Of a stretch of 38,930 nt of DNA, positions 7,423-38,930 are shown one piece after another (positions within the stretch are counted from its first letter, which is position 1; every line of letters begins with the position of its first letter). The stretch is from a virus, in the IMG/VR virus record IMGVR_UViG_3300031825_000045, positions 1-38,930 of that record; one strand, 5' to 3'. Made by a program: the position numbers and the translations under genes. Below the pieces are notes generated by a model, which saw only the letters and a list, made by a program, of their open reading frames with translations, was not told the origin of the DNA and searched no databases.

Positions 7423-7424
7423 CG

Positions 7425-7767: not shown

Positions 7768-7792
7768 CATCCGAACGAGCGACGGAGGGCCC

Positions 7793-8071: not shown

Positions 8072-8095
8072 CCCAGCGCCTTCTCGTCCATCGGC

Positions 8096-8991: not shown

Positions 8992-9087
8992 GACTTCGCT
9001 CCATCGGTGGAGAGGGCCGTCGGGACTGCGCTGTCACGAACAACCGCCCCCATCTTCATCGGCTTCACGGCTGGCTTGCGCTTCCGC

Positions 9088-10095: not shown

Positions 10096-10187
10096 CGTTC
10101 CTGTTCCTTCTCGGTGAGTCGGGCCTTAAGGGCGGCGATGCAGAGAGCGAGAGGAAGCGTGGAATTGGGCGCGCATCTACGGTCCGT

Positions 10188-14629: not shown

Positions 14630-15017
14630 GGGCGGCACTCCTTTCGCTGCGCGCCGGAGCGCCCGCGCCCGCGCGCTTAAGCCGAAGCAGGTGCGCGGCG
14701 CGGCGCACCGCAACCAGCGGCCGCGCGAGCAGCGCGGCGATGATGGAAGCGGGCAGCGTCGACGGCCACGCCATGTCGAGGAACTTGATCTCGGCGTGGG
14801 TCCAGCGTTCGTTCGCGCGCGGCGGGCGTTCCACGTGAAACCGGGGCGATTCGGCTCCGTTCCGCGAAAATTCGGTCTCAGCGGCGAAGCGATAGCCTTC
14901 CAGCCACTGGATCATCGGCGCGCCGATCAAATGGCAGTCGCCGGGGCGCGCCTTGTTGACGAACGCGGCGAGCCCCGCGAGCGCGGTCGGCGTGGCGGAC
15001 GGCTCGGCGGGATTCAT
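14622..15017 (-). CDS. Hypothetical protein, 131 aa, possible SANT/Myb- or GcrA-like HTH at the C-terminus
   Basis: RWTHAEIKFLDMAWPSTLPASIIAALLARPLVAVRRAAHLLRLKR. ATGA overlap upstream. Confidence 0.55.
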   Translation of the reverse strand: MNPAEPSATPTALAGLAAFVNKARPGDCHLIGAPMIQWLEGYRFAAETEFSRNGAESPRFHVERPPRANERWTHAEIKFLDMAWPSTLPASIIAALLARPLVAVRRAAHLLRLKRAGAGAPARSERSAAHA

Positions 15018-15451
15018 GGCGCGGCCTCCGGTTGGGGATGGAGCAGCGGCAGACCGAGCGACGCGCGCCAGGCATCGACCAGCTCGTCCTGGATGACGAT
15101 CAGCTCGTCGACCACGGCGGCGATCAGCGACTTGGCGCGGCCGTCGCTGTCGGCGGCGCCAAGGTGGTTGCGGATGCCGCGCGGCGTGAGGCCGTACTGC
15201 AGCGACGTCGACAGCAGCACGGCGATGTCGTCGTAGAGGAAGTCGGACTCGGTGCCGACCTTCGACTTGCCGCGCAGGAAGACCTCGAGCACGCGCGGCG
15301 CGGCGGCGTCGGTCGGATCGTAGTTGGCGGTGATGTACAACCGGCGCGGCTGGGCGTGATCGTCGTGGGCGAACGCGATGACGCGCACTTCGCCGACGCG
15401 CCGATTCGGCAGGCGATGACGGATCGGCGGCGTGTCGAGCGCGGCGGTCAT
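15014..15451 (-). CDS. Hypothetical protein, 145 aa (weak TSCPD/RNR C-terminal-like resemblance)
   Basis: EVFLRGKSKVGTESDFLYDDIAVLLSTSLQYGLTP. ATGA overlaps at both ends. Confidence 0.6.
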   Translation of the reverse strand: MTAALDTPPIRHRLPNRRVGEVRVIAFAHDDHAQPRRLYITANYDPTDAAAPRVLEVFLRGKSKVGTESDFLYDDIAVLLSTSLQYGLTPRGIRNHLGAADSDGRAKSLIAAVVDELIVIQDELVDAWRASLGLPLLHPQPEAAP

Positions 15452-15927
15452 GCGAGATCTCCACAGCCTCGGCCGACCGTTGCGCCGCGATCGCACGGGT
15501 TGGTGAACTTTTCCCAGTGCACCCAGCCGCGCGGACAATGAAAGCCCCAGGCGCGAATCTTCGGCCCGGTGATGAACAGCGTCGAGCACGGCTTGCCGTC
15601 GATCAATGCGATGCGGTGCGCAGCCCATGGTGACCGAAATTTGAATGTACCCGCGCGGCGCAACGTCTCGACGTGAACGCCGCCTGCGCGAATGGTGTGT
15701 TCGATGTAGGAGCCCTGCAGCAGCAGGCTCATGTTGAACCACGGGTGATCGTGGAGCGCGCGGTCGTCGTCATCGCGCAGGAAAAAATGGAAATAGATGT
15801 TGAAGACCGGATTGCGGGGAATGATGAACCAGCGCATGAGATAGGGATTGTCATGGCCGCCGACGACGAAATCGGGGCGCCGCCGCGTGAGGCGCTGCAG
15901 AACGGCGAGAACGATCCGCGTCATCAC
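15448..15927 (-). CDS. Conserved hypothetical phage protein, 159 aa (HDHPW motif)
   Basis: YLMRWFIIPRN..NIYFHFFLRDDDDRALHDHPW. Start and stop both overlap neighbouring genes. Confidence 0.65.
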   Translation of the reverse strand: MMTRIVLAVLQRLTRRRPDFVVGGHDNPYLMRWFIIPRNPVFNIYFHFFLRDDDDRALHDHPWFNMSLLLQGSYIEHTIRAGGVHVETLRRAGTFKFRSPWAAHRIALIDGKPCSTLFITGPKIRAWGFHCPRGWVHWEKFTNPCDRGATVGRGCGDLA

Positions 15928-19007: not shown

Positions 19008-19252
19008 TGGAACGGCGAACCGCTAAGGGTATCGAGTCCGTCGAGATGCGGGACATCCGAAAGGGTGACGTCTTTCGATGCGTAGAAGGTGGCCCGGGTC
19101 CGTGGCTCGTCGCCAAGGAAAACGCGCACAAACGCTGGCGCACGAACCGCACCACAGGAAAGAAGATGGAAGTCTGGGGCTGCGATGTCGATGTCGCGCT
19201 CACCAAGCGGGAACGGGCGCGCCTTGCGGAGCTACCGGAGATTCCATTCTGA
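19007..19252 (+). CDS. Hypothetical protein, 81 aa
   Basis: RBS GGGAGAGG upstream. Locally lower GC. Its stop overlaps the int start. Confidence 0.55.
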   Translation: MERRTAKGIESVEMRDIRKGDVFRCVEGGPGPWLVAKENAHKRWRTNRTTGKKMEVWGCDVDVALTKRERARLAELPEIPF

Positions 19253-20475
19253 TGCCGCGAAATAAAATCCGTTACTTCGTCGTCAAACAGGGCGCGGGCG
19301 GCACCGAGCTCTTCTACTGGCAGCCCAACAAGGAGCTGCGCGACAAGGGCTGGCCGCCGGTGCGGCTGCCGTCCGAACGCGCCGCCGCCGAGGCCAAGGC
19401 CGAGGCGCTCAACGCCGAACTCGACGCCTGGCGCGCGGGCGAGATGGCGAAGGCGCCACAGGTCAAGGCCGGCACCGTCACCGCGATGATCCACGCCTAT
19501 CTCGCCGGCCACGAGTTCCGCGACCTGCGCGACTCCACCCGCCGCGTCTACCGCCAGGCGCTCAAGCTGATCGAGACCTGGGCCGAGGACACGCCGGTCG
19601 GCCGCGTCGCCACCAACGACTTGCGGCAGTTCTACGAGGAGCTCTACTGGAAGGACCCCGAGGCGGATCCGCGCGTGCTCAACACGCCGGCGCAGGCGAA
19701 CACTATGGTGCGCACCGCGCGGCTCTTGTGGAAGTGGGGCATCGCCCACGGCTACGCCCACGCCAATCCGGGCCGCGACATCACCATCCGCGACGCGCGC
19801 GAGCCCGCCGTCGTCTGGCCGGCGGCGGCGGTGAAGCATTTCGTGCGCACGGCCGACGAGCTGGGCTGGTTCTCGGTCGGCACCGCGGTGATGCTCAACG
19901 AGTGGGCCGGGCAACGCCAGGCCGACATCCTGATGCTGCCGAAGGCGCGGTTCCGCAACGGCGCGCTGGCGGTGACGCAGCGCAAGACCGGCGCGCGGGT
20001 GCTGCTGCCGATCCACCTCGTGCCGGAGCTGATGACGCGCCTCGAGCAGGAGGCGGCGCGCAACAGCACGCGCGCCGACGGCGACAACCTCGCGGCGACC
20101 ACGCTGCTCGTCTGCGAGGCGACCGGCAAGCCGTGGAACCAGCACTACTTCCGTCAGGTGTTCGGCGCGATCCGCGCGGCCGCGGCCAAGGGCGACGCCG
20201 CGCGCGGCGTCGGCGGCGTGCCGTTCTTCAAGCACGACGAGGGCCTCGACATCGACGACGAGGGTGTGCGCATGATGGACCTCGACTTCATGCATCTGCG
20301 CCACACCGCGGTGTCGCGCAACGCGATCGCCGGCAGCACCACCGAGCAGATCGCCTCGATCACCGGCCACAGCCTCGCCCAGATCGAGCACATCCTCGAG
20401 CGCTACTTCGTGCGCTCGACGAAGCTGGCCGAGGGCGCGTTCAAGAAGCGCATCAAGGCGGAGCGCGGAGAGTGA
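19252..20475 (+). CDS. int: Tyrosine recombinase / phage integrase
   Basis: 407 aa. The C-terminal HLRHTAVS...ITGHS...ILERY pattern fits the R..H-x-x-R..H..Y catalytic signature. An attP-like tRNA fragment lies 360 nt downstream. Confidence 0.88.
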   Translation: MPRNKIRYFVVKQGAGGTELFYWQPNKELRDKGWPPVRLPSERAAAEAKAEALNAELDAWRAGEMAKAPQVKAGTVTAMIHAYLAGHEFRDLRDSTRRVYRQALKLIETWAEDTPVGRVATNDLRQFYEELYWKDPEADPRVLNTPAQANTMVRTARLLWKWGIAHGYAHANPGRDITIRDAREPAVVWPAAAVKHFVRTADELGWFSVGTAVMLNEWAGQRQADILMLPKARFRNGALAVTQRKTGARVLLPIHLVPELMTRLEQEAARNSTRADGDNLAATTLLVCEATGKPWNQHYFRQVFGAIRAAAAKGDAARGVGGVPFFKHDEGLDIDDEGVRMMDLDFMHLRHTAVSRNAIAGSTTEQIASITGHSLAQIEHILERYFVRSTKLAEGAFKKRIKAERGE

Positions 20476-22667: not shown

Positions 22668-25412
22668 CTAGCGCACCGCCTGCACGTCGAGGAAATCGAC
22701 GTCGACGACGCGGCTCGCCGTCGAACGCGAGAAGGCGGCAACGACGGGCGTGAGGTCGACGCTGTTGCGCACCGCGGCCGCCATCGCCGTGCCGACCACG
22801 GCGTTGTTGCGCCAGAAGGTCGCCGCGCCCGCGGTCGAGATCTCGATCCGCCAGGTCTCGTAGGTCGCCGCCGTCGGCGCGGTGCCCGCGTTCTGCTTGG
22901 TGGCGTCGACGTCGTTGGCGACGCCGACCAGCCACCAGTTGTCGGTGGCGGCGTTGGTGTCGAACAGGACGCCGACCGCGTCGGTCGCGTTCGAGGTCAG
23001 CGCGTCGGCCGCCGCCAGCGTGAACGGCATTTCCAGCGTGCCGACCTGGTCGGTGAAGCCGACGAACACCGCCACGTTGGTGATGGCGTCCATCTTGACG
23101 CGCGCCTCCAGCACCAGCTTGCCGTTGGCGCAGCGCCACACCAGCGCCTGCTCGAGCTGCACGCCGTTGGTCGCCATATCGCCGGCGGCGTCGTCGCCGG
23201 TGGTCATGCGCATGGCGCCACCCGTCTGGGCGTTGAACGCCGGCGCGACCACCTGCGGGTCGGTGCCGGATTGGCTGCCCCATTTGGCGTCGAGGGTGTC
23301 GCCGAGGAAGTCGTCGAACAGGCGGATACGGGCGGAATGGGCCAGCTCCAGCGGCCGCCATCCGGTGTTGGTGCCGCCGGCGAGGATGGTGCCGCCGCTT
23401 TCCTTGATGTAGAGCTGCCGGCCCTGGCCGCCGCCCTTTTTGATGTAGAGCGAGCCGGGACCGGCGTAGATATCGCCCTCGGGGTCGACGGTGCCGACCT
23501 GCACGGTGAGGAAATTCAGGTAATCGTAGAAGTCGCAGGAATAGGCGTTGCCGCTGCCGACGCGGTTGCCGACGGCGCGGATATTGGCGCCGAGGGTCGC
23601 GCCGCCGCTGACCGTGACGCCGATGTTGAGGAGATCGCAGCCCGAGATGGCGATCTCGTCGATCGTCACCGCCGAAGCCGCATAGAGCAGGATCGAATGC
23701 TGCGTCCAGTCGCGAGCGTAGACGCCGGCGATCGTGCCCTTGTAGCTGGTGTCGAGGAAGATGCCCTTGTTGCCGACGCTGTTGCCGTCGAGATACATAT
23801 TGGCGAGGGAGAAGCCGAGCGTGCTCGCCAGGGTGACGTAGTAGTAATCGGCCGAGCCGCTGCTCGAATAGGCCTTGCCGTCGAGCCCGTCGACGACGAG
23901 GCCGTTGGCGGACACGGCGTAGAGCGCACGGCCGACGTCCTTGCACGACACGCCGGTGACGACGTTGTTGGTCGGATTAACGCCGCTGGCGGCGCTGATC
24001 GAGATGCCGATGTTGGCGCCGATCTGCGCGCCGTCGCAGAACACGCCGTTGACGACGTTGCGCTGCGAGCCCGCCAGCTCCAGGCCGATGAAGCTCTGGC
24101 CCTGGCAGACGCTGTTGGTGATGACGCTGTCGTGGACCTGGGCGTGGCTGATGCCGTAGGTGCCGCCGATCGCCACGTTGCCGGAGACGGAGGCGTTCTT
24201 CGAGAACCAGATCTCGATGCACAGCGTGCCGGTGGTCGTCGAGGCCGGGTAGCGCACCCGGTTGCCGCGGATGACGGGGCCGATCAGGACGTTGCTGCTG
24301 GTGCCGCCCCAGATCTTCAGGCCCTCGCCGGCGATGGTCGCGGCGGCCTCGGCCGAGCGGTCGACGACGTTGTCCTCGACGCGCACGCCATGCACGCTTT
24401 GATTCGTGGCAAGCTGCAGGAAGGCGCCGTCGCTGGAGACGTCGGTGATATAATTGCGCCGCACGATCAGGCGCGGGCAGTTGTCGGACGCATAGATGCC
24501 GCGGCCCTTGCAGCTCGTGATCGTCAGGTCCTCGATCGTCACGTCCGACGAGCCGGTGCTGACGCCGATGCCGGTGCTGGCGGTGACATTGGCGCGGTTG
24601 CCGTCGATCGTGCCGGGGCCGGAGATCCGCACGTTCGATCCGGCGACGGCGATCAGGTTGCCGTTGAGGGTGCTTTTGGCCTTGAGCGTCGCGCCTTTGA
24701 GCAGCTCGAGGTGCATCGCCCCGTCGACGGTCAGCGCGCCGGTCGGATAGGTGCCCTTGGGCACGATCAGGCGCAGGCCGTTGGCGTCACAATAGTCGAT
24801 CGCCGCCTGCAGGGCGGCGGTGTCGTCGGTGGCGCCGTCGCCGAGGGCGCCGAAGTCCTTGACCGAGAGAATGTCGCCGAAGTGCTGCGTCAGCGCGCGC
24901 GCGGCGCTGCCGCCCTCGGCGGTGACCGAGGTGAGATCGATGACGGAGGAGAACAGCGTCGGCGCGCCGGTCACCGAATCGAAGCCGAGATACTTGCCGA
25001 AGCGCGTGGCGAAGGACGGCAGATCGTCGATCGGCGCGGTGTCGGTGACCGGGAAGCGGAGGGTGCGCGAAAGCGCGGCGTCGAGCTGCTGCGTCAGGAT
25101 CGCGACGCGGTCGATGGCGGCCATGGTGTTGGCGGCCGGGAACTTGCCGGTATCCTCGAGCAGCGTCGGCTGGGTGTAGGGCACGTCGCGGTCGATGACG
25201 ATGGCCGCATCGGCCGCCGGGGCCGTGGTGAAGACGACGTTGCCGCCGGCGGCGACGTCGATGCCGCTGACGCTGTAGCCCGACGTCTGCAGGACGGCGT
25301 TGACGTAGACCTTGAGATCGGTCGAGGCGTAGATCCGGTTGGTGTAGGCGAACGTATCGGTGACGCCGTCGCCGGTGTAGGCCCAGCGGTTGGTCGAGGA
25401 CGAGACGGTCAT
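22668..25412 (-). CDS. Tail fibre/tailspike: T7 gp17-like N-terminal adaptor, pectate-lyase-type beta-helix and lectin-like C-terminal domain
   Basis: The N-terminal NRWAYTGDGVTDTFAYTNRIY...VFTTAP matches the podoviral fibre N-domain. SVKDFGALGDGATDDTAALQAAIDY is the pectate-lyase-3 type start of a beta-helix. The C-terminal LFDDFLGDTLDAKW... resembles a jelly-roll domain. Confidence 0.85.
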   Translation of the reverse strand: MTVSSSTNRWAYTGDGVTDTFAYTNRIYASTDLKVYVNAVLQTSGYSVSGIDVAAGGNVVFTTAPAADAAIVIDRDVPYTQPTLLEDTGKFPAANTMAAIDRVAILTQQLDAALSRTLRFPVTDTAPIDDLPSFATRFGKYLGFDSVTGAPTLFSSVIDLTSVTAEGGSAARALTQHFGDILSVKDFGALGDGATDDTAALQAAIDYCDANGLRLIVPKGTYPTGALTVDGAMHLELLKGATLKAKSTLNGNLIAVAGSNVRISGPGTIDGNRANVTASTGIGVSTGSSDVTIEDLTITSCKGRGIYASDNCPRLIVRRNYITDVSSDGAFLQLATNQSVHGVRVEDNVVDRSAEAAATIAGEGLKIWGGTSSNVLIGPVIRGNRVRYPASTTTGTLCIEIWFSKNASVSGNVAIGGTYGISHAQVHDSVITNSVCQGQSFIGLELAGSQRNVVNGVFCDGAQIGANIGISISAASGVNPTNNVVTGVSCKDVGRALYAVSANGLVVDGLDGKAYSSSGSADYYYVTLASTLGFSLANMYLDGNSVGNKGIFLDTSYKGTIAGVYARDWTQHSILLYAASAVTIDEIAISGCDLLNIGVTVSGGATLGANIRAVGNRVGSGNAYSCDFYDYLNFLTVQVGTVDPEGDIYAGPGSLYIKKGGGQGRQLYIKESGGTILAGGTNTGWRPLELAHSARIRLFDDFLGDTLDAKWGSQSGTDPQVVAPAFNAQTGGAMRMTTGDDAAGDMATNGVQLEQALVWRCANGKLVLEARVKMDAITNVAVFVGFTDQVGTLEMPFTLAAADALTSNATDAVGVLFDTNAATDNWWLVGVANDVDATKQNAGTAPTAATYETWRIEISTAGAATFWRNNAVVGTAMAAAVRNSVDLTPVVAAFSRSTASRVVDVDFLDVQAVR

Positions 25413-25584: not shown

Positions 25585-28500
25585 CTATTGCAGCGTCGGC
25601 GCGTTACCGGAGCCGCCGCCGGCCGGGGCGGCGGCGGGGCGCGGGGCGCGGAGCTGCTGCGCCTTCGATTGCAGCGACGAGGTGATCAGGGCGCGCAGGT
25701 CGGGATCGCCGGCGATCAGCTTCTCCTTGGCGTCCATGCGGAACCTCGAGATGACGTCCTTGACGATCTGGCCGCGGAGGTCGTCGCCGGCGGCGGCGTA
25801 GCGTTGCGAGATCGCTCCGGCGCGGCCCTCGATCACGGCGTCGAGGTAATCGTGGGCGCCGATCGGCTGGGCGACGCCCGGGACCGACAGCTTGAGTTCG
25901 TTGCCGGCGAGCGCGATCAAACGGTTCTGCTGCTCGGGCGACAGCTTGATCTGGAGCGACACGCCGCCGCGGGAGAAGTCCTGCACCTGCTTCGGCGGCA
26001 TCGCCTCCAGCTTCATGCGGGCGATCTCGCGGTCGGCGGCGGTGCCCTTGTCGCTGGAGAAGCGCGCCGGCACGAAGATGCCGTAGAGGCCGTTCTCGTC
26101 CTTGATCGGCTGCCCCCACAGGTCGAGACGCGGCGGCAACGACGACGACAGGCCGGGGATGCGCGCCTGGATGGCTTCGAGCCAATTGCTGGCGCGGCGG
26201 ATCTCGGGGTCGACCGCGCGCTCGATCGCGGCGATGCCCGACGGCACCACCGACGACACCGTGCGCTGGATCCAGCTCTCGCCGTAGCGGGTCGGGTCCG
26301 ACAGGGCGTCGACCAGGCCGGCCAAGCCCGACATCCACGTCTTCGACAGGATCGCGCCGGCGAACGGCATCGTCACCGAGGCGGCGACCGAATCGTCGAC
26401 CGGCGTGCCGTCGATGTTGAGGGTGTCCTTCTGGCGCGTGTAGACGCCGGTCAGCAGCTCGGTGGCGTCGGCGGCGAGGCCGATCAGCATGCCGAAGGTG
26501 CCGGAGCGGTTGTAGCCGATCCACCTGTCGCCGACGTGGATCGAGTAGGGCTGCCAGCCGGTGCGGGCGAGGTCGGCGCGCAAGGCCGGGTCCTTCGGGC
26601 CGACGCCGCTGACGCGGCCGGACAGCGTCAGGTCGGCGAACGCGGCCATGATGGCGGAGCCCGAGGCGATGCGGGCGAGGGCCGCGTCGCGCGCGGCGCC
26701 GCCGGCGGCGATGTCGGACATGACCGACGGCGACAGGAACGCGAGCGGCGTGCGGGCGAAGCTCCAGCGCATCAGGTTGACCGGCGTGCGCAGGAACGGA
26801 ACGATGACGCGGCCGACCGGCAACTTCACGTCGGTGCCGGGGATCGGGATGTTGGCGGCATCGACCATCTGCGCGAAGAACTTGGCCGAGCCCTCCAGCG
26901 GCTGGTTGTAGGTGCCCTTGATCGCCTGGGCCTGGGCCGCCTCCGACAGCCAGTCGGGCATGTCGTTGAGGAGCTGCGTCGCATAGGCCTGGGCCTCGGG
27001 GCCGGCGAGGCCCTGGTCGATCGCCGCCTTGCGCCAGGCGAGCGCCGCCGCCTCGCCGCGGAAGTTCATGGTCTTGGTCAGCTCGTCGCCGGCGGCCATC
27101 AGCCGGGTCGGCATCAGCATCTTGAGCCAGTCGGCGAACTGCCGCGTGGGACCGGAGGTCAGGAGATCCTCCGATGACGGCAGGGGCGCGTTGGCGTTGA
27201 CCGGCAGCTCCGTCCGCTGCGGCATGCGGTATCGGCTTTCGCCGGTCTGCATCGTCCGCCAGGCGAGGCGCAGGCCGTCCTTGAAGCCCTTGGCGATGCC
27301 GTAGAGCCGCGCCGTCGCCTCGCCCTCGGCCACGTTGCCGCCGAACTTGGAGGCGAACCAGGTCTCGGGCACCTGGTAGAGCGTCGTCACCGACGTGTCG
27401 CCGACGTTGGCGACGTGGGTGGCGGGATTCGACAGCAGGATGTTCGACCACGCGAAGGTGAGCTTGTCGCGGGTCGTGGCCTTCGGCAGCTCCTCGAGGA
27501 ACCTTTGCACCTCGGCCGGATCCTTGAGCGAGGCGATCTTGGCGGCGAAGTCGAGCGAGACGGCGTTGCCGCCGGTCTCGTCGATCATCTTCTGCAGCGC
27601 CTTGACCATGTCGGGCTCGGACTTGCGCAGCGCGTTGTGGATCTGCAGCGCGCGGGCGATGTCCGACGATTGGCCCTTCGCCTCGCGCAGGATGCCGTAG
27701 GCCATCTGCGTCGCGGCGTTGAGCCGGGCGATGTCCTCGGGCGCCCCGGTCGCGGCCGCCCGGGCGCCGAGCTCGGGGAGCTGCGCGGCGGACGAATGGA
27801 CCAGCATCCACTTGGCGGCGATCTGGCGCGCGTCGAGGGATGCTGGGTCGCCGACGTCGAGGCCGAGGGCCCGGGCGCGGGCGAGCGTCTCCTCCATCGG
27901 GATCGACTTCGCCGGCGGCAGCAGCTTGGAGAGGTCGCCGATCGCCTGCTTGATCCGGTCGGGCCCGTCGAAGCGGTCGAGGTTGACCTGGATCGGCGCG
28001 TCGGGAACAGTGCCGGCGAGGAACTTCGCCGCCTTGTCGGCGAACTGGCTGTTGTCCTGGGCAGCGAGCACGATCGGCGGAGTCGAACGGGCGGCCAGAG
28101 CGCGCGTGTTCAGCACCGCGATCTCATCAGGCACATTGAACAGCTTATTGGCGTCGCGCATGCGAAACACGACCGCGTCGGCACCCTCCTTTGTTGCCGC
28201 GGCTATCTCTCGGGCCTTGATGTCGGCGAGGGTCCCGGAACTCAGATCTTTTGACGTGTATTCGACCGACCTGATTTTTTTGGCATCGAGCGAGAACTCT
28301 TTGACGACGTCACCGTCCGCCATCTTGGCGAACTTGCCCGCCGATTCTCGCGACGTTGTCACCCAAAACGCGGGCTCATTAGTGATGCCTGATACAGCCC
28401 CCGCGCGGGCGAGGTCAGGAGGGCCTGAGAAATCCACATTCGTGCCGTGGTAAACGGCGGTCCCCGACGGAAGGTCGCCCTCGAGCATGATCGATTTCGG

Positions 28501-29694
28501 AATGACCTTCGGGACCGAGCCGACGGAGGGAACCGCCTCGGCGCCGCCGGCCGTTGGGGCGGGTGTCCCAGCGCCGGGTTGCACCCCGGCGCCGTTATGA
28601 AGCGCGGCGCGCAGCACCTGGAACGCCTTGAGGACGCCGTCGGTGGCCGCCTGGAGGCCGGCGGTCTCGAGGCCGGCCTTGAGGCGGGCGAGCAGCTCGG
28701 GGTCGTCGGCGTTCGCCTTGAGGAAGTCGGTGAGCGGGTTCGGCGCGACGCCGTCGATGACGTTCGACAGCCGCGGCGCGCGCGGATCGAAGCCGGTGGC
28801 GCCGGCGCCGAAGGCGTCGAGGATCTTCTTGTAGGTGCCGGCCGGCACGCCGAGCGCCTTGCTGACCTTGCCGACCAGCGCCTGCGAGGTCAGCCACTGG
28901 GCGGTGAACTCGACCGTCTTGCCGGTGCCCGAGGCGCGCTCGGCGAACAGCTGCGGCAGCTGCGCGGCGGCGTCGCCGGGCTGGAATGCGGGATCGGTCT
29001 TGCGGATCTCGGCGATCAGGTCGAGCGGGCCGCCCTTGATGGCGTCCGGGGCGTTGTCGTAGAGCCAGCCGGCGAACGCGCCGACGGTGTTGGCGGTTTC
29101 GTTGACCGCCGTCGTCGCCCCGCGCACCACCGAGCCCGGCGTCTCGATGGCGCCGCGGGCGAGGTCGCCCGAGACCGCGTCGGCCACCGGCCCGTAGCGC
29201 ACGACGCCGGCTGCGATGGGCCCGAGCCAGCGGCCCCAGGCGGTGTTGGGATCGAATAGCCGCCCCTGGTTGTTCTGGCCGGCGTCCTGCGGCGGCGTTT
29301 CGCCGGACGGCGCGCCGGACCCAGCCGGGGACGACGGGTTGGTGGGCGGCGCCGTCCCCGGCTGAGAGATGAGGCTGTCGAACCAGGCGTCGGGGCTGGC
29401 CGCCTGGGCCTGGGCCTGGCCGCGCTCGGCGGTGTAGCGGGCGCCGAGGTCCTGATCGGGCACGTCGAGCGAGGCCTTCATCAGGCGCGGCGCGTTGCCG
29501 CCGGCGCCGGCGTCCGTCGCCAGGCTCTGCAGCGTCGACGGCGGCCCCCCCTTGGCGACGTCGATCGTCACCGCCGAGGGCTCCGGCGGGCCGCCGAGCG
29601 CGACGCGCGGATCGTTGAGGATGCTTTCTCCACCCGGCGAAGAAAGGGTTGGTGCGGCGGCTTCCTGAGCCGGGCGCTTATTGTCGGCGGCCAT
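25585..29694 (-). CDS. Large internal virion (ejection/core) protein, T7 gp16 position, 1369 aa
   Basis: It is the third and largest of three consecutive genes between tubular protein B and the fibre. It has a low-complexity Pro/Ala/Gly N-terminus. No transglycosylase motif was seen. Confidence 0.75.
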   Translation of the reverse strand: MAADNKRPAQEAAAPTLSSPGGESILNDPRVALGGPPEPSAVTIDVAKGGPPSTLQSLATDAGAGGNAPRLMKASLDVPDQDLGARYTAERGQAQAQAASPDAWFDSLISQPGTAPPTNPSSPAGSGAPSGETPPQDAGQNNQGRLFDPNTAWGRWLGPIAAGVVRYGPVADAVSGDLARGAIETPGSVVRGATTAVNETANTVGAFAGWLYDNAPDAIKGGPLDLIAEIRKTDPAFQPGDAAAQLPQLFAERASGTGKTVEFTAQWLTSQALVGKVSKALGVPAGTYKKILDAFGAGATGFDPRAPRLSNVIDGVAPNPLTDFLKANADDPELLARLKAGLETAGLQAATDGVLKAFQVLRAALHNGAGVQPGAGTPAPTAGGAEAVPSVGSVPKVIPKSIMLEGDLPSGTAVYHGTNVDFSGPPDLARAGAVSGITNEPAFWVTTSRESAGKFAKMADGDVVKEFSLDAKKIRSVEYTSKDLSSGTLADIKAREIAAATKEGADAVVFRMRDANKLFNVPDEIAVLNTRALAARSTPPIVLAAQDNSQFADKAAKFLAGTVPDAPIQVNLDRFDGPDRIKQAIGDLSKLLPPAKSIPMEETLARARALGLDVGDPASLDARQIAAKWMLVHSSAAQLPELGARAAATGAPEDIARLNAATQMAYGILREAKGQSSDIARALQIHNALRKSEPDMVKALQKMIDETGGNAVSLDFAAKIASLKDPAEVQRFLEELPKATTRDKLTFAWSNILLSNPATHVANVGDTSVTTLYQVPETWFASKFGGNVAEGEATARLYGIAKGFKDGLRLAWRTMQTGESRYRMPQRTELPVNANAPLPSSEDLLTSGPTRQFADWLKMLMPTRLMAAGDELTKTMNFRGEAAALAWRKAAIDQGLAGPEAQAYATQLLNDMPDWLSEAAQAQAIKGTYNQPLEGSAKFFAQMVDAANIPIPGTDVKLPVGRVIVPFLRTPVNLMRWSFARTPLAFLSPSVMSDIAAGGAARDAALARIASGSAIMAAFADLTLSGRVSGVGPKDPALRADLARTGWQPYSIHVGDRWIGYNRSGTFGMLIGLAADATELLTGVYTRQKDTLNIDGTPVDDSVAASVTMPFAGAILSKTWMSGLAGLVDALSDPTRYGESWIQRTVSSVVPSGIAAIERAVDPEIRRASNWLEAIQARIPGLSSSLPPRLDLWGQPIKDENGLYGIFVPARFSSDKGTAADREIARMKLEAMPPKQVQDFSRGGVSLQIKLSPEQQNRLIALAGNELKLSVPGVAQPIGAHDYLDAVIEGRAGAISQRYAAAGDDLRGQIVKDVISRFRMDAKEKLIAGDPDLRALITSSLQSKAQQLRAPRPAAAPAGGGSGNAPTLQ
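28090..28497 (-). other. Lower-GC insert domain (aa about 400-535 of the 1369-aa protein) with ADP-ribosyltransferase-like H-(Y/F)-E motif order
   Basis: VYHGTNVDF ... AFWVTTSRESAGKFA ... VPDEIAVLN. The surrounding nucleotides are visibly more AT-rich than the rest of the gene. Confidence 0.4.
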
Positions 29695-29697
29695 CGC

Positions 29698-31293
29698 TTA
29701 ACGGCCCCCCTGGCCGGACTTGGGTTTCACCGGCGGCTGCGCGGCGATGATGTCGCTCCAGCGCTTGAGCACGCCCATCTCGCGGTCGTAGTCGGGCTGG
29801 GCGATGGTGCCGCCGTCGCGCAGCGCGCGCAGGCGGGTGCCCATCGCCTTGACGTCGTCGGCGGTCGCGGGCGCGCCGAGGCCGTAGCCGAGGGCCGGCG
29901 GCGCGGTGGCCGTGCGGCCGTACTTGGCGACGATGTCGTCGGCGACCGTCCACGGGTCCTCCTTGCGGTCCTTGACCCGGGCGATGAACTCGCGCTGGGC
30001 GCCGGCGAGGCGCTGGGCTGTGTCCTCGTCGAACGAGAACGCCAGCTTGTCCTTGCCGAGATAGGTGCCGATGTACTGGTAGGCGTTCTTCTCGTTGTCG
30101 GTGTGCCAGTCCTCCTTGCCGGCGGCGTCGCGGCGGCGCTGGTTCTCGGCCAGCATGGACGCGGCGGTCGGGCCCGACAGGCTGTTGCCGGTGGCGGCGA
30201 GCACGGCATCGTGGACGTCCTCGCCCTTGAGCATGCGGTCCTGCAGATCGACCACGGTGCGCGGATCGTCGACGCCCGAGAGGGCGCGGCCGCGCACGGC
30301 GCGGATCGCGTTCAAGCCCTCGGGCGAGATCTCCTGGCGGCCGACCTTGTCGGCGAGGTCGACCTCGCTCACCGCGTTGGGATCGCTCTGCGCCTGGGCG
30401 ATCAGCGCCGCCTCGTTCTTCGCCTGCGTCGTTCTGAGGGCAAGGGCGGCCTGGCGCTCGGCGCGGTCGCCCGAGGCGATGCGCTCGCGGGCGAGCGCGT
30501 CGGCGCGGGTCTGGCCGGTGCGGATCAGGCGCTCCTGCTGCACCGCGTCGAGGTTGGGATACGCGCCGGACTGCAGCTCGGCCACCGCGCCGTTGACCGC
30601 GCTCTCGTCGCCGTTGAAGCGGCCGAGCACCTGGGCCTCGTCGATCTGGCCGAGGAATTTCTTCTGGCGCTTCTGCGCCTCGACCGGGTCGATGACGCCG
30701 AGCGCCTGCATGCGGTCGATCGCCATCGTCCCCTGGTCGATCGCCGCCTGGCGCGCCACCGGGTTGCCGGCGTGCACGGCGAGCGGCACCAGCGTGTCGA
30801 GGGTGTCGAGGTTCTGCGCGTCGGCCGACTTGACCAGGTTCTCGCGCGCCTTGGTGCGGACGTCGAACTCGGCGGTGGTCGACAGCGTGTCGAAGTGCCT
30901 CTTGAAGGCGAGGCCGACGTGGCCGGCGCCGAGCTGGCCGGCGTAGCGGTCGCGGATCGCGGCGGCGTCCTTGACGAAGGCGTCGGGGGCGGCGCTCCAG
31001 TCGACCGGCTGGGCGACCGTGTTGCCGTTCTCGTCGGTCGTCGTCTTCGGCTGCAGCGCGCCGAACTTGAGCGTCAGCAGGTCGCGCTGGGCGGACGACA
31101 GCGTCTCCTGCAGCTTCTGCTCGTCGGCGGCCATCTGCAGCTTGCCGGCCACCGCCGTGGTGACATCGGCAACCTGGCCGAAGCCGCGGGCGATGGTCGC
31201 GCCGACGACGCCGGCGGCGGCGACGTCGCCGCGTGCCTGGCCGCCCTGGGTCGGGATTCCCGCTTGCCTGTTGTAGATAGGAACTACCGGCAT
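29698..31293 (-). CDS. Internal virion protein, T7 gp15 position, 531 aa
   Basis: Assigned by synteny (second core gene). Composition is helical and A/Q/D/R-rich. Confidence 0.65.
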   Translation of the reverse strand: MPVVPIYNRQAGIPTQGGQARGDVAAAGVVGATIARGFGQVADVTTAVAGKLQMAADEQKLQETLSSAQRDLLTLKFGALQPKTTTDENGNTVAQPVDWSAAPDAFVKDAAAIRDRYAGQLGAGHVGLAFKRHFDTLSTTAEFDVRTKARENLVKSADAQNLDTLDTLVPLAVHAGNPVARQAAIDQGTMAIDRMQALGVIDPVEAQKRQKKFLGQIDEAQVLGRFNGDESAVNGAVAELQSGAYPNLDAVQQERLIRTGQTRADALARERIASGDRAERQAALALRTTQAKNEAALIAQAQSDPNAVSEVDLADKVGRQEISPEGLNAIRAVRGRALSGVDDPRTVVDLQDRMLKGEDVHDAVLAATGNSLSGPTAASMLAENQRRRDAAGKEDWHTDNEKNAYQYIGTYLGKDKLAFSFDEDTAQRLAGAQREFIARVKDRKEDPWTVADDIVAKYGRTATAPPALGYGLGAPATADDVKAMGTRLRALRDGGTIAQPDYDREMGVLKRWSDIIAAQPPVKPKSGQGGR

Positions 31294-31764: not shown

Positions 31765-32270
31765 CAGGCGGCCTCCCCGGCATGTTCGGATGCCGCCGTC
31801 TCACACGTCGGCTCGCGCCGAACGGGCAGGGCTGGCGCAGCGGCCGCCCGCGAGGGCGGCGAAAAATGGGAATATATAATCGCGTCGCCGCCGTTCTGGA
31901 GCCAGCCGCGGGCGATGCCGTCGGGCTCGAAGCCGAGCCTGCGCGCCCAGACCATCCCCGGATAAAAGTCGATCGAGACGTCGATGGCGATGCGGTGCAG
32001 GCCGCGGGCGTGGGCGCGATTGAGGATCGTCGCCGCCTGGGCGGTGATGGCCGGCCAGGCGCGCCATGGCACGTCGGGGGCGAAAATCGCCCAGGCGGTG
32101 CCGCGCCAGGCCGTTTCGGCGACGATGCCGGCGCAGCCGATCACGCGCAGGCCGGCCAAGCCGGTCCAGGTCAGGCCCGGGTTGTCGAGCGCCAGGGCAT
32201 AGCGCGGATCCATGTCCGGCGGCACCAGGCCGCGCAGGTGCTCGGGACGGTAGGGCACGAACTCAACCAT
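31764..32270 (-). CDS. GNAT-like acetyltransferase-fold protein, 168 aa, at the T7 gp13 position
   Basis: VIGCAGIVAETAWRGTAWAIF...HRIAIDVSIDFYPGMVWARRLGFEPDG reads as a GNAT core pattern. RBS GGAG upstream. It overlaps the stop of tubular protein B by 8 nt. Confidence 0.5.
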   Translation of the reverse strand: MVEFVPYRPEHLRGLVPPDMDPRYALALDNPGLTWTGLAGLRVIGCAGIVAETAWRGTAWAIFAPDVPWRAWPAITAQAATILNRAHARGLHRIAIDVSIDFYPGMVWARRLGFEPDGIARGWLQNGGDAIIYSHFSPPSRAAAAPALPVRREPTCETAASEHAGEAA

Positions 32271-34716
32271 CGTTGGCTCCAAGCTGCGGCATCAGCGCCA
32301 CCACGGTGACCGGCGTCGGGTCGGTGCCGAACAGCACCAGCGGCGAGTCGGTGTCCCACGCGCCCTCGAAGGTCAGGTCCTTGTCGCCGGTGAACAGCGG
32401 CGGCGCGGCGCCGGTATCGTCGTCGGCGTCGCGGAAGGCGATCGCGTCGTATTCACCCTCGGTCTCGCTGCGGCCGACGTTGCAGCCGAGCGAGCGGTAG
32501 AAGCGCACGGCGATCTGATTGATGCGCTTCGGCAGCGCCTGGGAGGTGCCGGTCGGGGCGGCGATCTCGTAGCGCATCGGCTCGATCAGCCAGCGGTAGC
32601 CGAGGCCGACCTGGGCGACCGACACGGCGGGCGACACGGCGATGCTGCCGTCGGCGACGACGGCGTCGGGGTAGACGGCGCCGTCGCCGTAGACCTTCAC
32701 CGTCTGGCCCTCGAGGTGCCACAGCCCCGTCAGTGTGGTGGTGGGCGAGCCGTCGTAGGTCAGCCCGCAATCGACGTAGAAGGCGTCTTCCTGGGCGACG
32801 GCATGGCCGAGCGGCGCCTCCATGAACTCGACGGTGCGGACGGTGCGGCCGTCGATCGTGCGCTTGACGATCAGCCACAGCTCGTCGCCGGCGGCGCCGG
32901 GGATGGTCGACACCGCCTCGACTACGGCGTCGCCGCCGCCGAACGCGCCGCCGAGGATGTGGCGGTGCCACGGCACCACGTTCTGCTCGCGCAGATAGGT
33001 CATGCCGAGGAGCTGGCCGTCGGCGCGCTCCGACCACAGCACGCTCCACGGCTCCTGCTGGTAGGCGAGGTCGAGGAAGCCGTCGCCGGCGATGTGGTCG
33101 GCGAGCTCGGTCATGTCCGGCGCCTTGTAGCCGTCGGATTCCAGCGTGTAGGCGAGCTCGCGGATCTTCTTGCCGGCGCGCTGCGGGAACAGCACGGCGT
33201 TCGACACCGTCTCCGGCATCATGTCGGCGCAGCCGTGCCGGGTCTGCGAGCGCACGGCGACGTTGGTCGGCGTCAGCGGCTCGTTGTTGGGCGACATCAC
33301 GCGGAATTCGCCGCCCGAGGTCAGGATCAGCAGGTCCTTGGCCGAGGCGAAGGCGCGGATGGCGTTGACCTGGTCGGAGGCGATCGCGAACGACAGCGGG
33401 TCGTCGTCCTGGGCGCCGGGAGCGAAGTTCTCGAAGTCGTTGGTCTTGGAGCCGTCGAAGCGCTGCGGGTTGAAGCCCGCGCCGCCGAACAGCAATCGCT
33501 CCTCGTGGAAGCCGACGGCGGACGGCCAGCCGTCGGTGTCGGACCAGGCGCCGAGCCGCCACGACGCGACCGCGCCGGTCGCGGCGAAGGCGTTGACGAT
33601 GTCGATCTTGACGTGGGTGGTGTCGGTGAACGTGACGATCTTGCCGTAGCCCCAGGCGAGGCCGCCGGCGTTCTGGAAGTCCCACTGGCAGGTGCCGTCG
33701 ACGATGCCCTGGCCGGTGCCGGAGGGGCCGCCCGAGCCCGCCGAGGTGCCGGCGGTGACGCAGCGATAGACATTGCCCTGGTTGTAGCGGAGATCGCCGA
33801 CGGCGTAGGCCGTGGTGGCGGCCCAGGCGGTCGCGGCGTGGCCGATGCGCAGGAGGCGGCCGACGTCGGTCGCCTTGAACCCGGCGCCGGCGTTGACGCC
33901 GGTAATGGCGGTGGTGATGGTCACGGTGACGTCCGAGCCGGTGGTCGCGGCGAGTACCAAGGTGGTCGGCGTCGTGTTCTCGTCGAGGTAGGGCCCGTCG
34001 TGAAAATCGACGGTCTCGATGGTCCAGCTCGTATGGCCGGTGCGCGACAGCTTGCGCGGGGCGTAGGACGGATGGACGAGATACATGACGTCGGCCGATT
34101 GGGCGAACTTGAGGCGCAGCCGGTTGTCGGAATCGAACAGATCGGCCTGGATCCAGGGCGCGGCAATCTTGTAGACGCGCGCCGCCGTGCCACCGGAGGC
34201 GTAGGCCGTGAAGGCGGAGCTGTCGATCGGGTTGCCAAACACATCGTTGAGCTCGAAGGTGTTGGCGGTCGGATTGGCGACGCGGAAGCGGCGGCCATTC
34301 ACCTGCGTCATGCCGACGACGCCGGAAATGTCGATGTCATCGGTGGCGACGTACCCATGACCGGCGATGGTGACCACCGCCGGATTGGCGCGGGTGATGC
34401 CGGTGATGGCTTTGGCCGCCTCCAGCACCGAGCCCTGATTCATGTAGAAGCGCAGATTGCCGTCGCCGACGGCGATCTGGTAGGCCTGCACGATCGAGAA
34501 CTCGAACGGTATGAGCGCGCCGCGCACGGCTGAATTCTGCAAGTAAGAGACGAAGCGGGTGCCCGGCCGCCGGGTCGCCGGACCCTGGGCGAGCGGGATC
34601 ATGTTCTCCATGATCCGGCACATCGACGGGTACTTGTCGAAGCCGATGAAGCCGTCGAGGTGCGGCGACGCCTCGCCGCCGTTGAACTTCTGCGTCAGGG
34701 CGTTGATGCGCGTCAT
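32263..34716 (-). CDS. Tail tubular protein B (nozzle), T7 gp12-like, 817 aa
   Basis: The N-terminal FNGGEASPHLDGFIGFDKY...MENMIPLAQGPATRRPGTRF is characteristic of this family. Synteny places it after tubular protein A. Confidence 0.85.
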   Translation of the reverse strand: MTRINALTQKFNGGEASPHLDGFIGFDKYPSMCRIMENMIPLAQGPATRRPGTRFVSYLQNSAVRGALIPFEFSIVQAYQIAVGDGNLRFYMNQGSVLEAAKAITGITRANPAVVTIAGHGYVATDDIDISGVVGMTQVNGRRFRVANPTANTFELNDVFGNPIDSSAFTAYASGGTAARVYKIAAPWIQADLFDSDNRLRLKFAQSADVMYLVHPSYAPRKLSRTGHTSWTIETVDFHDGPYLDENTTPTTLVLAATTGSDVTVTITTAITGVNAGAGFKATDVGRLLRIGHAATAWAATTAYAVGDLRYNQGNVYRCVTAGTSAGSGGPSGTGQGIVDGTCQWDFQNAGGLAWGYGKIVTFTDTTHVKIDIVNAFAATGAVASWRLGAWSDTDGWPSAVGFHEERLLFGGAGFNPQRFDGSKTNDFENFAPGAQDDDPLSFAIASDQVNAIRAFASAKDLLILTSGGEFRVMSPNNEPLTPTNVAVRSQTRHGCADMMPETVSNAVLFPQRAGKKIRELAYTLESDGYKAPDMTELADHIAGDGFLDLAYQQEPWSVLWSERADGQLLGMTYLREQNVVPWHRHILGGAFGGGDAVVEAVSTIPGAAGDELWLIVKRTIDGRTVRTVEFMEAPLGHAVAQEDAFYVDCGLTYDGSPTTTLTGLWHLEGQTVKVYGDGAVYPDAVVADGSIAVSPAVSVAQVGLGYRWLIEPMRYEIAAPTGTSQALPKRINQIAVRFYRSLGCNVGRSETEGEYDAIAFRDADDDTGAAPPLFTGDKDLTFEGAWDTDSPLVLFGTDPTPVTVVALMPQLGANDG

Positions 34717-36074: not shown

Positions 36075-36836
36075 TTAAGAGGCGCTCCCATGCTCCGCAT
36101 CGCCTTGCACGGCGATGCGCGTGTAAGAATCGGCATCCTGTTGGGCGCCGAGGGCCGCCCCGCCAACCCCATGCGCGGGAGCGCTTTGGAGTGTGGGATC
36201 GTCGCCGGTCTCGTAAATCTCCTGCCAGACGCCGCCGCAGTCCCACGGCTTGGGGCGGCCGTGGAAGCACAGCAGGCGCGCGCCGTCGGGCAGGCCGTCG
36301 CGGGCGACGGCCGCCGCCTTGTAGCTGACGGCGAGGCCGGGCCAGATCTCCTGGATGCGGCCCGCATCCGGCACGCAGCGCCCGATCCAGCCGCCGTCGC
36401 CGTGCGGCTCCGACCGCATGATCCCGGCGGGATCGGCGAGGAAGCGCTCGTAGATCGCGGCGCTGATCGGCGACGGCCGGAACAGCATGACGCCGGAGGC
36501 GAGCCGCGCGGGCTCGTAGAAGTCCGCCAGCATGGCGAAGTCGCCGGGGTATCGCGCGAGCGGCGCGAGGTCGCCGGTGACGATGGTGTCGAGGTCGAGG
36601 TAGAGCACCAGCTCGTCGGCGAAGACGCCGGGCCGGAACAGCTCGATCTTCGACCACCAGCCGGGGAAGCCGTGGCCGAGCGGGACCGCGACGACGCCCG
36701 CCACCGGCTGGTCCGACAGCACGCGGATGTGGTGCGGCACGCCCTTGAGGCGCTCGCGCACCTGATGGCCGAGGGCGCGCACGTGCGCGGGCGCGTACTG
36801 GCCGCCGGAGCGCAGGACCATGGCGACGGTGATCAT
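36075..36836 (-). CDS. GT8-like nucleotide-sugar glycosyltransferase, 253 aa
   Basis: WWSKIELFRPGVFADELVLYLDLDTIVTGDL contains a DxD motif in a GT-A context. CFHGRPKPWD lies near the C-terminus. Confidence 0.6.
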   Translation of the reverse strand: MITVAMVLRSGGQYAPAHVRALGHQVRERLKGVPHHIRVLSDQPVAGVVAVPLGHGFPGWWSKIELFRPGVFADELVLYLDLDTIVTGDLAPLARYPGDFAMLADFYEPARLASGVMLFRPSPISAAIYERFLADPAGIMRSEPHGDGGWIGRCVPDAGRIQEIWPGLAVSYKAAAVARDGLPDGARLLCFHGRPKPWDCGGVWQEIYETGDDPTLQSAPAHGVGGAALGAQQDADSYTRIAVQGDAEHGSAS

Positions 36837-38031: not shown

Positions 38032-38913
38032 TCACTCGACGCAGACGATCTCGACGACCTTCTCCTCCTCCATGCGGGTCGCGCCGATGGTCATGGAGAA
38101 GAACACCTGCGTGGCGTAGTTCTTGTCGGCGCGCTCGGTGATGCGCGAGGTGATGTCGGCGCCGACCGCGAGCAGCAGGCCCGACTGCTGCCAGGCGATG
38201 CAGCGGCGCGCCGACGCGCCGTTGACCGGCAGGATCTTCGTGCCGTCGGCGCGCAGGCCGTTCACCGGCACGAAGGTGAAGCCCATGAAGGTGTTGATCT
38301 GGCCGGCGGCCAGCGCCTTCACGGTGTTGTAGTCGGCGTTCTTGACCTCGGTGGTGTTGAGGAGGTCGGTGACCTGCCCGGCGGTGAGGGCGATGTAGCG
38401 GCCGTCGGTATCGACGTCGTTGCCGTCGAGGATCTCCTTGGTGTTGAGGAGCTTGGCCAGGGTGAAGCCGGTCGACGCGGCGACGACGACCTGCGTCGAC
38501 GGCAGGGCGACCGTCGTCGAGCCGGTCTCGCCGGTGTAGGCGGTGCCGAGCGCCGCGTCGACGATCTCCTGGTCCATGCTCCGGCCCATCGCGTTCGCCG
38601 CGTTCATCTGGTACGGCGACGTGAAGTCGTTGAGCGTGCGGACCTTGTCTTCCTGGTCGATCAGGTCGGCCCAGTCGTAGTCGACGATGGAGACGCGCCG
38701 ACGGGAGTGCGGCGTGTCGACGCGCGGCGTGTCGGAATGCCGCGACGTGCGGCGCTGCGCCGCGGTGGCGCCGAGCTGGTCGTAGAAGGCGTTCGTGCCG
38801 GTCTGCGATTCGACGCGCACGGCGCCGCGAAGCTTCGAGCCCTTCTGCTGCACCTTGAGCAGAACGCCCGACTTGTACTCCTGCACGAAGGCAGTGGTGA
38901 TCTGAGTGGACAT
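38032..38913 (-). CDS. Major capsid protein (HK97-fold, T7 gp10/BPP-1-like)
   Basis: 293 aa. The block VSIVDYDWADLIDQEDKVRTLNDFTSPYQMNAANAMGRSMDQEIVDAALG parallels the T7 gp10 core. The start is the second ATG, 5 nt after GGAGG. The gene runs into the terminal repeat. Confidence 0.88.
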   Translation of the reverse strand: MSTQITTAFVQEYKSGVLLKVQQKGSKLRGAVRVESQTGTNAFYDQLGATAAQRRTSRHSDTPRVDTPHSRRRVSIVDYDWADLIDQEDKVRTLNDFTSPYQMNAANAMGRSMDQEIVDAALGTAYTGETGSTTVALPSTQVVVAASTGFTLAKLLNTKEILDGNDVDTDGRYIALTAGQVTDLLNTTEVKNADYNTVKALAAGQINTFMGFTFVPVNGLRADGTKILPVNGASARRCIAWQQSGLLLAVGADITSRITERADKNYATQVFFSMTIGATRMEEEKVVEIVCVE

Positions 38914-38930
38914 CCGTCCCTCCATGGTTG
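38804..38930. repeat. Second copy of the 127-nt terminal repeat
   Basis: Identical to bases 1-127. Confidence 0.95.

Follow-up and report, generated by a model that had tools for sequence, protein, structure and literature searches.

A predicted ADP-ribosyltransferase domain inserted in the gp16-position virion protein of a T7-like phage

The carrier gene and its inserted segment

We analysed a viral DNA of 38,930 nucleotides, the IMG/VR record IMGVR_UViG_3300031825_000045 at its full length (hereafter the window), and within it a minus-strand open reading frame (ORF) of 1369 residues that occupies the gene 16 position of a T7-type structural module and contains a segment resembling ADP-ribosyltransferases (ARTs). 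We refer to its product as the carrier. The minus-strand genes follow the order capsid, three small genes, tail tubular protein A, tail tubular protein B, two small genes, a 531-residue gp15-like gene, the carrier and a tail fibre (Table 1). Locus L012 has the same gene order as the structural module of the window. The carrier starts with an ATG 3 nt past the stop codon of the upstream gene, and a G-run precedes this start. The carrier matched PHROG 6651, ‘internal virion protein’, at E 6.6e-31 over residues 862-1206, within its C-terminal ~700 residues. A tblastn search with residues ~650-1350 matched 40 phage records, and in many of these ‘internal virion protein D’ is the annotation; the phages are chiefly marine T7-like ones (Pelagibacter, Roseobacter and cyanobacterial T7-like phages). 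The protein of locus L006 that the upstream gp15-like product resembles (554 aa) is encoded between a Pfam T7_gp14 gene and a gp16-like gene. Because of the gene order, the PHROG match, the matches to internal virion protein D and the gp15-like gene upstream, we use the label ‘gp16-position’ for the carrier. The same observations support the gp16 assignment that had been made in an earlier, sequence-only reading of the window.

That reading also described residues 400-535 as an ART-like module of foreign composition. These residues correspond exactly to positions 28090-28497, and the three motifs that had been quoted from them are present at residues 414-422, 442-456 and 521-529. The DNA is indeed AT-richer than the rest of the gene: GC is 0.598 in the span and 0.718 elsewhere in the gene, and the count given for positions 28261-28320 (32 G+C in 60 nt) is exact. 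The GC of the whole window is 69.5%. The span lies within the lowest 0.7% of all 408-nt windows, and the minimum over 120 nt (0.525) falls at 28240-28359. G+C at third codon positions (GC3) is 0.72 in residues 400-535 (98 of 136 codons) and 0.95 elsewhere in the gene (1170 of 1233 codons; Fisher p = 3.2e-15), in agreement with the proposed foreign composition. No other structural gene of the window contains a 136-codon stretch with GC3 < 0.86, and maximum-likelihood segmentation delimited a low-GC3 segment that takes in both linker and domain (Table 1). We considered an amino-acid bias as the source of the GC dip and rejected it, as the effect sits at third codon positions.

The proposed domain insertion was borne out by comparison with related proteins. 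A search with the whole carrier returned an identical protein and 13 homologues. In the seven gp16-position homologues closest to the carrier (40-56% identity, 1127-1222 aa) both flanks of the module can be aligned, and residues 388 to ~535 face a gap, where these proteins have a Pro/Ala/Gly linker of 25-45 residues. One of the seven, P0028, comes from a locus whose genes, capsid through fibre, are arranged as in the window. The GC3 dip coincides with this gap, and in the two genes checked for homologues without the ART segment (P0028 and P0029) the GC3 minimum lies elsewhere. Nothing above chance-level short matches was found in searches for direct or inverted repeats flanking the insert. Judged from the alignment, the module is a true insertion in a flexible, hypervariable Pro/Ala-rich linker that joins the N- and C-terminal conserved blocks, an indel that is not kept in all homologues. 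The composition of the insert fits horizontal transfer from a lower-GC phage lineage with partial amelioration, because its stand-alone relatives (see below) are on contigs of 32-55% GC, in genes whose GC is below that of the contig around them.

Table 1 Features of the window and of the carrier gene
Feature	Position (nt)	Strand	Basis or remark
gp16-position internal virion (ejection) protein, 1369 aa (the carrier)	25585..29694	-	ORF; PHROG 6651; tblastn
Low-GC3 (foreign-composition) segment, aa 365-544, linker and inserted domain	28063..28602	-	Maximum-likelihood segmentation: GC3 0.73 inside, 0.956 outside, log-likelihood ratio 41.5
Predicted folded core of ART-PolyVal-like domain, aa 412-535	28090..28461	-	PF18760; AlphaFold (AF2) model; Foldseek
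VYHGTNVDF, aa 414-422	28429-28455	-	
AFWVTTSRESAGKFA, aa 442-456	28327-28371	-	
VPDEIAVLN, aa 521-529	28108-28134	-	
His416 codon, predicted strand-1 His of the NAD-binding triad, VYHG motif	28447..28449	-	Invariant in 18/18; aligned to canonical His; model strand E24-30
Trp444 codon, at canonical strand-2 Tyr position, motif AFWVT	28363..28365	-	Phe443 and Trp444 invariant; model strand E55-58
Asp523-Glu524 codons, candidate catalytic acid(s), motif DEIAV	28123..28128	-	Invariant pair; entry of strand-5 equivalent
Carrier N-terminal conserved block, aa ~53-363	28606..29538	-	Alignment; phmmer of aa 1-387 against P0028-P0036; common to homologues without the ART segment
Carrier C-terminal conserved block, aa 545-1369	25588..28062	-	phmmer E = 0 to 2e-20 against P0028-P0040; alignment; common to all gp16-position homologues
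gp15-position gene, 531 aa, upstream of carrier	29698..31293	-	BLASTP E 5e-14 to 554-aa L006 protein
Tail tubular protein B (nozzle), synteny anchor	32263..34716	-	PHROG 376 E 5.7e-197; Pfam Phage_nozzle and E1_FCCH
Tail fibre/spike gene, directly downstream of carrier	22668..25412	-	PHROG 1640 and other tail-fibre families; N-terminal adaptor E 8e-28
Major capsid protein	38032-38925	-	First in the gene order

Pfam scans of the N-terminal, middle and C-terminal blocks of the carrier and of the small upstream ORF gave no match. Residues 1-387 gave no Pfam match to SLT or lysozyme at E ≤ 0.5, which indicates a carrier without an N-terminal lytic transglycosylase. A hydropathy scan of the carrier revealed no strong transmembrane segment. 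Pfam T7_gp14 had no match in the window itself, and the two small upstream ORFs had no significant BLASTP match to the gp14-region proteins of L006. The right half of the window had no megablast match among GenBank phages, and pattern scans of GTDB genomes and IMG/VR for close relatives of the whole carrier confirmed none.

The gene map of the window looks like that of a circularly permuted complete genome. On the strand opposite to most other genes there is a tyrosine-integrase-like gene (PHROG 1; 19078-20475, plus strand), which indicates a temperate T7-like podovirus. A glycosyltransferase-like gene (36075-36836, minus strand; PHROG 1962, E 4e-47) is found at an unusual site, between the major capsid protein and tail tubular protein A. 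The DUF5131/PHROG 2045 gene at 12092-13129 (minus strand) has a GC3 of 0.68 over the listed ORF with a 136-codon minimum of 0.47, and this island looks like a second region of foreign composition. The 673-aa ORF listed for it runs into the high-GC3 gene at 13129-14244 in a different frame and therefore seems to have been extended upstream spuriously. A GC content as low as that of the ART segment is otherwise confined to 408-nt windows at 8135-8912 and 15447-15855. At ~7400-10100 and 14713-15900 no high-GC3 ORF could be called; these regions may be recently acquired or non-coding. Among the homologues without the ART segment, P0029 is encoded on a 79.5-kb freshwater metagenome contig (L011), apparently a truncated prophage, in the order integrase, small terminase, gp15-like gene, gp16-like gene and, directly after the latter, bacterial two-component-system genes.

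Family, fold and predicted active site of the insert

We compared the inserted segment with known families by profile and by structure. Its top Pfam match was PF18760, ART-PolyVal (21.1 bits, E 5.7e-4); the full-length carrier scored 15.3 bits against the same family. No match was obtained with the domain alone in a word-indexed homologue search or, with phmmer, against PDB sequences, and the family profile retrieved from PDB sequences just a chance match to NusA (E 0.63). An exhaustive phmmer search of 1.84e9 cluster representatives returned 18 matches at E ≤ 1e-3, and we counted 17 of them as relatives (E 8e-33 to 3e-9). On these numbers, the ART-PolyVal subfamily of the window domain is very rare.

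The window domain and its 17 relatives make up the 18 aligned sequences considered here. The relatives are 29-49% identical to the window domain. PF18760 was matched by 17 of the 18 sequences, and its gathering threshold was passed by two relatives, P0003 (33.1 bits) and P0010 (31.7 bits), whose own matches to the window segment have E-values of 3.5e-17 and 5.4e-13, respectively. Five members also matched the ART family DUF3990. The Pfam matches of the segment and its relatives included no Alt/VIP2 or other R-S-E family. Invariant residues occupy 12 columns of the alignment: His416, Gly417, Ser435, Glu440, Phe443, Trp444, Ala452, Lys493, Asp506, Asp523, Glu524 and Ala526.

An AlphaFold (AF2) model built with 14 relatives as input had a predicted local distance difference test score (pLDDT) of 74 and a predicted template modelling score (pTM) of 0.70, with residues 24-147 of the 157-aa query structured. 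All 50 of the matches listed by Foldseek against the PDB belong to the ART superfamily, and they comprise MbcT (probability 0.98), tankyrases, PARP2 and RES-Xre proteins; PARP domains were structural neighbours solely at E ≥ 0.014. Against BFVD there were 51 matches at E ≤ 1e-3 (best 5e-8), many of them named ART-PolyVal; a MuF fusion and the virion RNA polymerase (vRNAP) of an N4-like phage rank among the top matches. Because profile and fold evidence agree, we assign the segment to ART-PolyVal (PF18760) as a divergent domain of a rare branch. The ART-like character suggested from the letters of the DNA thus held up against both kinds of evidence, with ART folds matched by the model in the PDB as well as in BFVD.

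The parent ART-PolyVal family has a His in strand 1, a Tyr in strand 2 and an Asp in strand 5 (H-Y-D; PMC5512222). The sequence-only reading had likened the order and spacing of the motifs to an H-Y-E triad. Its His (His416) and its Glu (Glu524, paired with Asp523) are retained in our assignment, and its Tyr is not: the motif at residues 442-456, which had been taken to supply it, contains no tyrosine, and its invariant aromatic pair is Phe443-Trp444. Both the hidden Markov model (HMM) alignment to the canonical member P0039 and hhalign place FWVT against LYFT. In the structure model, strand E136-139 begins at Glu524, and Asp523 is the preceding residue. The predicted active site is accordingly His416/Trp444/Asp523-Glu524.

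Other members of the subfamily occur outside gp16-position proteins. In one relative the domain is joined to a ParB C-terminal domain (PHROG 2579), a fusion that we read as the ParB type of polyvalent proteins. Small stand-alone members are encoded two genes after a portal gene. In loci L002 and L003 this portal gene is of the SU10 type, and the stand-alone members (P0016), of ~215 aa, are extended at the N terminus by ~90 aa. The genes of these members are AT-richer than their contig (0.326 versus 0.419), which suggests mobile cargo there too.

Several gp16-position proteins contain other enzymatic segments. In P0035 (1515 aa) the N- and C-terminal blocks flank an insert of ~390 aa at the same linker, and this insert contains a Zeta-toxin kinase (E 1e-11); its locus (L006, 2782-7329) has a Pfam T7_gp14 gene upstream. 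The GC3 of the Zeta insert (0.82) is slightly below that of its flanks (0.88). More distant carriers include P0039, at the gp16 position of a podovirus structural module, with a canonical ART-PolyVal domain (37.3 bits) and an HExxH motif; P0037, also with an HExxH motif; and P0038, with a staphylococcal-type nuclease. Three gp16-position proteins in GenBank contain unannotated, sub-threshold ART-PolyVal-like segments. The first, gp12 of the cultured Autographiviridae member Ralstonia phage RS-PII-1 (NC_047804; L007, 4847-9916), is a 1689-aa protein annotated ‘internal virion protein with endolysin domain’, with an SLT domain at residues 51-128 and a metallopeptidase-like HEVGVH motif. Its ART-PolyVal-like segment, at about residues 719-850, matches PF18760 at E 0.002 when excised and is 54% identical over 43 aa to the ART of P0039. 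The second is a ‘hypothetical protein’ of Caudoviricetes sp. vir555 (BK063671; L010, 4561-10485; E 7e-3). The third is a ‘methyltransferase’ of Rhodobacteraceae phage LS06-2018-MD07 (OP947163; L009), in which the ART-PolyVal segment (E 1.6e-5) adjoins a methyltransferase domain.

Proposed mode of action and its alternatives

We propose, with moderate confidence, that residues ~395-540 form an NAD+-using enzyme of the ART fold, inserted in a linker and ejected with the DNA, which ADP-ribosylates a host macromolecule early in infection. The proposal builds on the fold and family of the domain, its insertion, its foreign codon composition and the gp16 position of its gene, all observed here. A few copies of the carrier would be stored in the capsid core and would leave through the tail to form the conduit for DNA ejection. 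The enzyme would enter the new host together with the DNA or earlier, in advance of all phage gene expression. It would probably stay tethered to the ejectosome at the site of DNA entry, because no peptidase domain is detectable in the carrier. The tethered enzyme would then ADP-ribosylate a host macromolecule catalytically, so that a host function is taken over or a defence is disarmed. Catalytic activity, exposure to the cytoplasm, a target and a benefit to the phage are the parts of this proposal that we infer.

Work on related systems makes such a route plausible. T7 gp16 is part of the capsid core, in about four copies (4-6 per virion), and after ejection it spans the periplasm, the inner membrane and the cytoplasm; its C-terminal part projects into the cytoplasm, binds DNA and forms a hub around the entering genome (PMC8954989). 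The small number of copies per virion would favour a catalytic payload. A recent precedent for an anti-defence role of an ejectosome subunit is gp15, which acts against CapV, an effector of the cyclic-oligonucleotide-based anti-phage signalling system (CBASS) (bioRxiv 10.1101/2025.07.23.666291). Of the protein-modifying domains that virion-delivered polyvalent proteins contain, ART-PolyVal is the most frequent (PMC5512222).

Several of our results weigh against the proposed mode of action, and they concern both the enzyme and its delivery. The window segment (21.1 bits) does not reach the PF18760 gathering threshold of 31.2 bits, and the Foldseek scores against the PDB are weak (best E 9e-3, TM-score ~0.47). 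The canonical strand-2 Tyr is a Trp in all 18 aligned sequences; with this change in every member, the NAD+ chemistry could differ or be lost. Alignment with hhalign to a small set of canonical ART-PolyVal segments covered the first ~50 residues at 20% probability, and we used it solely for the register of the His and the Tyr/Trp, which the HMM alignment to P0039 reproduces. With ~50 N-terminal residues covered, hhalign does not fix the register of Asp523-Glu524 relative to canonical ART-PolyVal. We know of no member of the Trp-variant subfamily, nor of any ART-PolyVal domain, with a demonstrated activity or target. As for delivery, a profile of eight homologues, compared with PDB sequences for similarity to T7 gp16 itself, gave no match at E ≤ 1. 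The AF2 model of carrier residues 545-1369 has low confidence (pLDDT 61) and no meaningful Foldseek match; 7k5c ranks 17th, at E 3.1. The topology of T7 gp16 is not transferable to the carrier, because no similarity in sequence or fold to T7 gp16 can be demonstrated. The most hydrophobic stretches, at residues 983-1121, lie downstream of the ART domain, which may or may not reach the NAD+-containing cytoplasm. Pfam and motif searches of the carrier detected no peptidase domain or release site and no HExxH.

The structural matches raise the question of which NAD+ chemistry the domain would perform. Its best match in the PDB is the NAD+ phosphorylase MbcT, RES-Xre toxins rank high too, and the Tyr-to-Trp change gives a non-canonical active site, points in favour of an enzyme that destroys NAD+ (a NADase or NAD+ phosphorylase, like RES/MbcT) and on arrival lowers local NAD+ or removes NAD+-derived defence signals. 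We consider this unlikely: the profile matches and the much stronger BFVD matches point to ART-PolyVal and not to RES, the R-E-S signature is absent and the His/aromatic/acid arrangement is kept, and a few tethered molecules would be poorly suited to depleting the cellular NAD+ pool. If the domain does transfer ADP-ribose, the acceptor could be nucleic acid, either host DNA or RNA or the end of the entering phage DNA, with the effect of blocking host transactions or shielding the genome. DarT and KptA, of the ART superfamily, act on nucleic acids (PMC9503650), and the cytoplasmic part of T7 gp16 surrounds the entering DNA (PMC8954989), which would hold a tethered enzyme beside it. However, no specific similarity to DarT or KptA appeared among the profile or fold matches, and Iyer et al. 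place ART-PolyVal among the protein-modifying domains (PMC5512222), so that we judge this acceptor to be similarly improbable.

The lack of the canonical Tyr could instead mark a catalytically inert domain, a binding or structural bead such as a sensor of NAD+ or ADP-ribose or a spacer in the conduit; many homologues work with nothing at this site, and the insert therefore seems dispensable for ejection. Yet 12 positions are invariant across relatives of such low identity, including His416, Trp444 and Asp523-Glu524 at the expected active-site positions, an invariance to be expected of a maintained active site more than of a spacer. The Zeta kinase, which P0035 carries at this site, is an enzyme as well, and we regard an inert domain as quite unlikely. 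The domain would be made late, in an NAD+-containing cytoplasm and alongside the structural proteins, and the enzyme could in principle act within the cell that makes the phage, or on virion components as they are assembled, and not in the newly infected host. We find this very improbable, as the close, syntenic homologues checked evidently assemble without the domain, and as stand-alone proteins near portal genes and the ParB C-terminal fusion follow the pattern of injected effectors (PMC5512222). An injected enzyme that ADP-ribosylates a host macromolecule remains our preferred reading.

ARTs, Zeta kinases and methyltransferases require NAD+, ATP and S-adenosylmethionine, respectively. From this need of the cargo enzymes we infer that the cargo-bearing part of the carrier should come to lie in the cytoplasm. 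A more speculative extension, which we put forward as a possibility and hold to be doubtful, is that the Pro/Ala linker of gp16-position proteins serves as a general ‘cargo slot’, in which cytoplasm-acting enzymes (the Trp-variant ART, the Zeta kinase, a canonical ART-PolyVal with a peptidase) are swapped as anti-defence or takeover payloads for the first minute at the DNA entry port. In that case the H-W-D/E subfamily would differ in function from other ARTs and act on something not yet known as a target of any phage ART, for example a defence nuclease or the entering DNA.

Significance and relation to known systems

Virion-delivered ART-PolyVal domains, including one on an ejected podovirus protein, the N4-type vRNAP, are established in comparative genomics (PMC5512222). 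The locus described here is clearly a new example of the known polyvalent-protein strategy and not a new kind of system. Its new elements, as far as the sequences indicate, are a rare Trp-variant subfamily, a T7-type carrier and unusually clear evidence of recent insertion. Internal virion proteins and gp16 are not mentioned in Iyer et al. 2017 or in the 2022 survey of NAD+-ADP-ribose systems, and a literature search for ARTs in ‘internal virion proteins’ returned nothing relevant. The sequence-only reading had called fusion to a core protein an unusual delivery route. It is less unusual than that: ART-PolyVal was first described on ejected N4-type vRNAP and MuF head proteins (PMC5512222, PMC9503650), and we found ART-PolyVal or similar segments in other gp16-position proteins.

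In short-tailed phages, ejection proteins are usually regarded as structural parts of a conduit. The locus offers a natural comparison, with near-identical modules that have or lack an enzyme at one linker and another enzyme in a relative. Two questions become directly testable: what the common ART-PolyVal domains modify, and whether an ejectosome subunit delivers catalytic effectors to the cytoplasm before gene expression. Our comparison also shows that ART-PolyVal-like domains go unannotated in T7-like phages in GenBank, whose carriers bear the names ‘hypothetical protein’, ‘methyltransferase’ or ‘internal virion protein with endolysin domain’.

We compared the window domain with known systems that share its fold, its carrier or its mode of delivery. 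The closest is the ART-PolyVal family itself (PF18760; the ‘N4-ART’/Tox-ART-HYD2 clade), whose prototype is the vRNAP of Roseovarius Plymouth podovirus 1. Both domains have the same fold, reside in a large ejected virion protein of a podovirus and have a strand-1 His; the Asp523-Glu524 pair of the window domain is a candidate counterpart of the late-strand acid (PMC5512222). The window domain differs in its sub-threshold score, its Trp in place of Tyr and its Asp-Glu pair, where a single Asp is described; in place of a vRNAP, its carrier is a gp16-position protein of T7 type, without a metallopeptidase (MPTase) domain. Among other ART clades, the H-Y-E ARTs (PARP/diphtheria-toxin clade) have the Tyr that the window domain lacks, and the parent Pfam family is H-Y-D (PMC5512222). 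RES-domain toxins (MbcT, RES-Xre) share the ART-superfamily core and are the best structural matches in the PDB, whereas the window domain is without the RES (Arg-Glu-Ser) signature and without an antitoxin partner, and the profiles favour ART-PolyVal.

As is proposed for the window domain, T4 Alt is an ART packaged in the virion, which is injected with the DNA and modifies host proteins before phage expression (PMC5512222, PMC9503650). It is a myovirus head protein in its own right, from the R-S-E (Alt/VIP2) clade, whereas the window has a His/Trp/Asp-Glu domain internal to an ejectosome subunit. MuF-fused polymorphic toxins and polyvalent proteins likewise place a swappable enzymatic payload on a conserved virion carrier; their payloads are C-terminal, whereas that of the window is an insertion in an internal linker. 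The polyvalent proteins of Iyer et al. 2017 combine several effector domains, typically with a zincin-like MPTase, and with one recognizable enzyme the carrier is barely ‘polyvalent’. T7 gp16 has the same gene position, after tubular proteins A and B, small protein(s) and a gp15-like protein and before the fibre, and both proteins have an enzymatic add-on. In T7 gp16 the add-on is an N-terminal lytic transglycosylase, a phage-specific domain (PMC8954989) that acts in the periplasm, whereas the add-on of the window is internal and, through its predicted use of NAD+, would depend on the cytoplasm.

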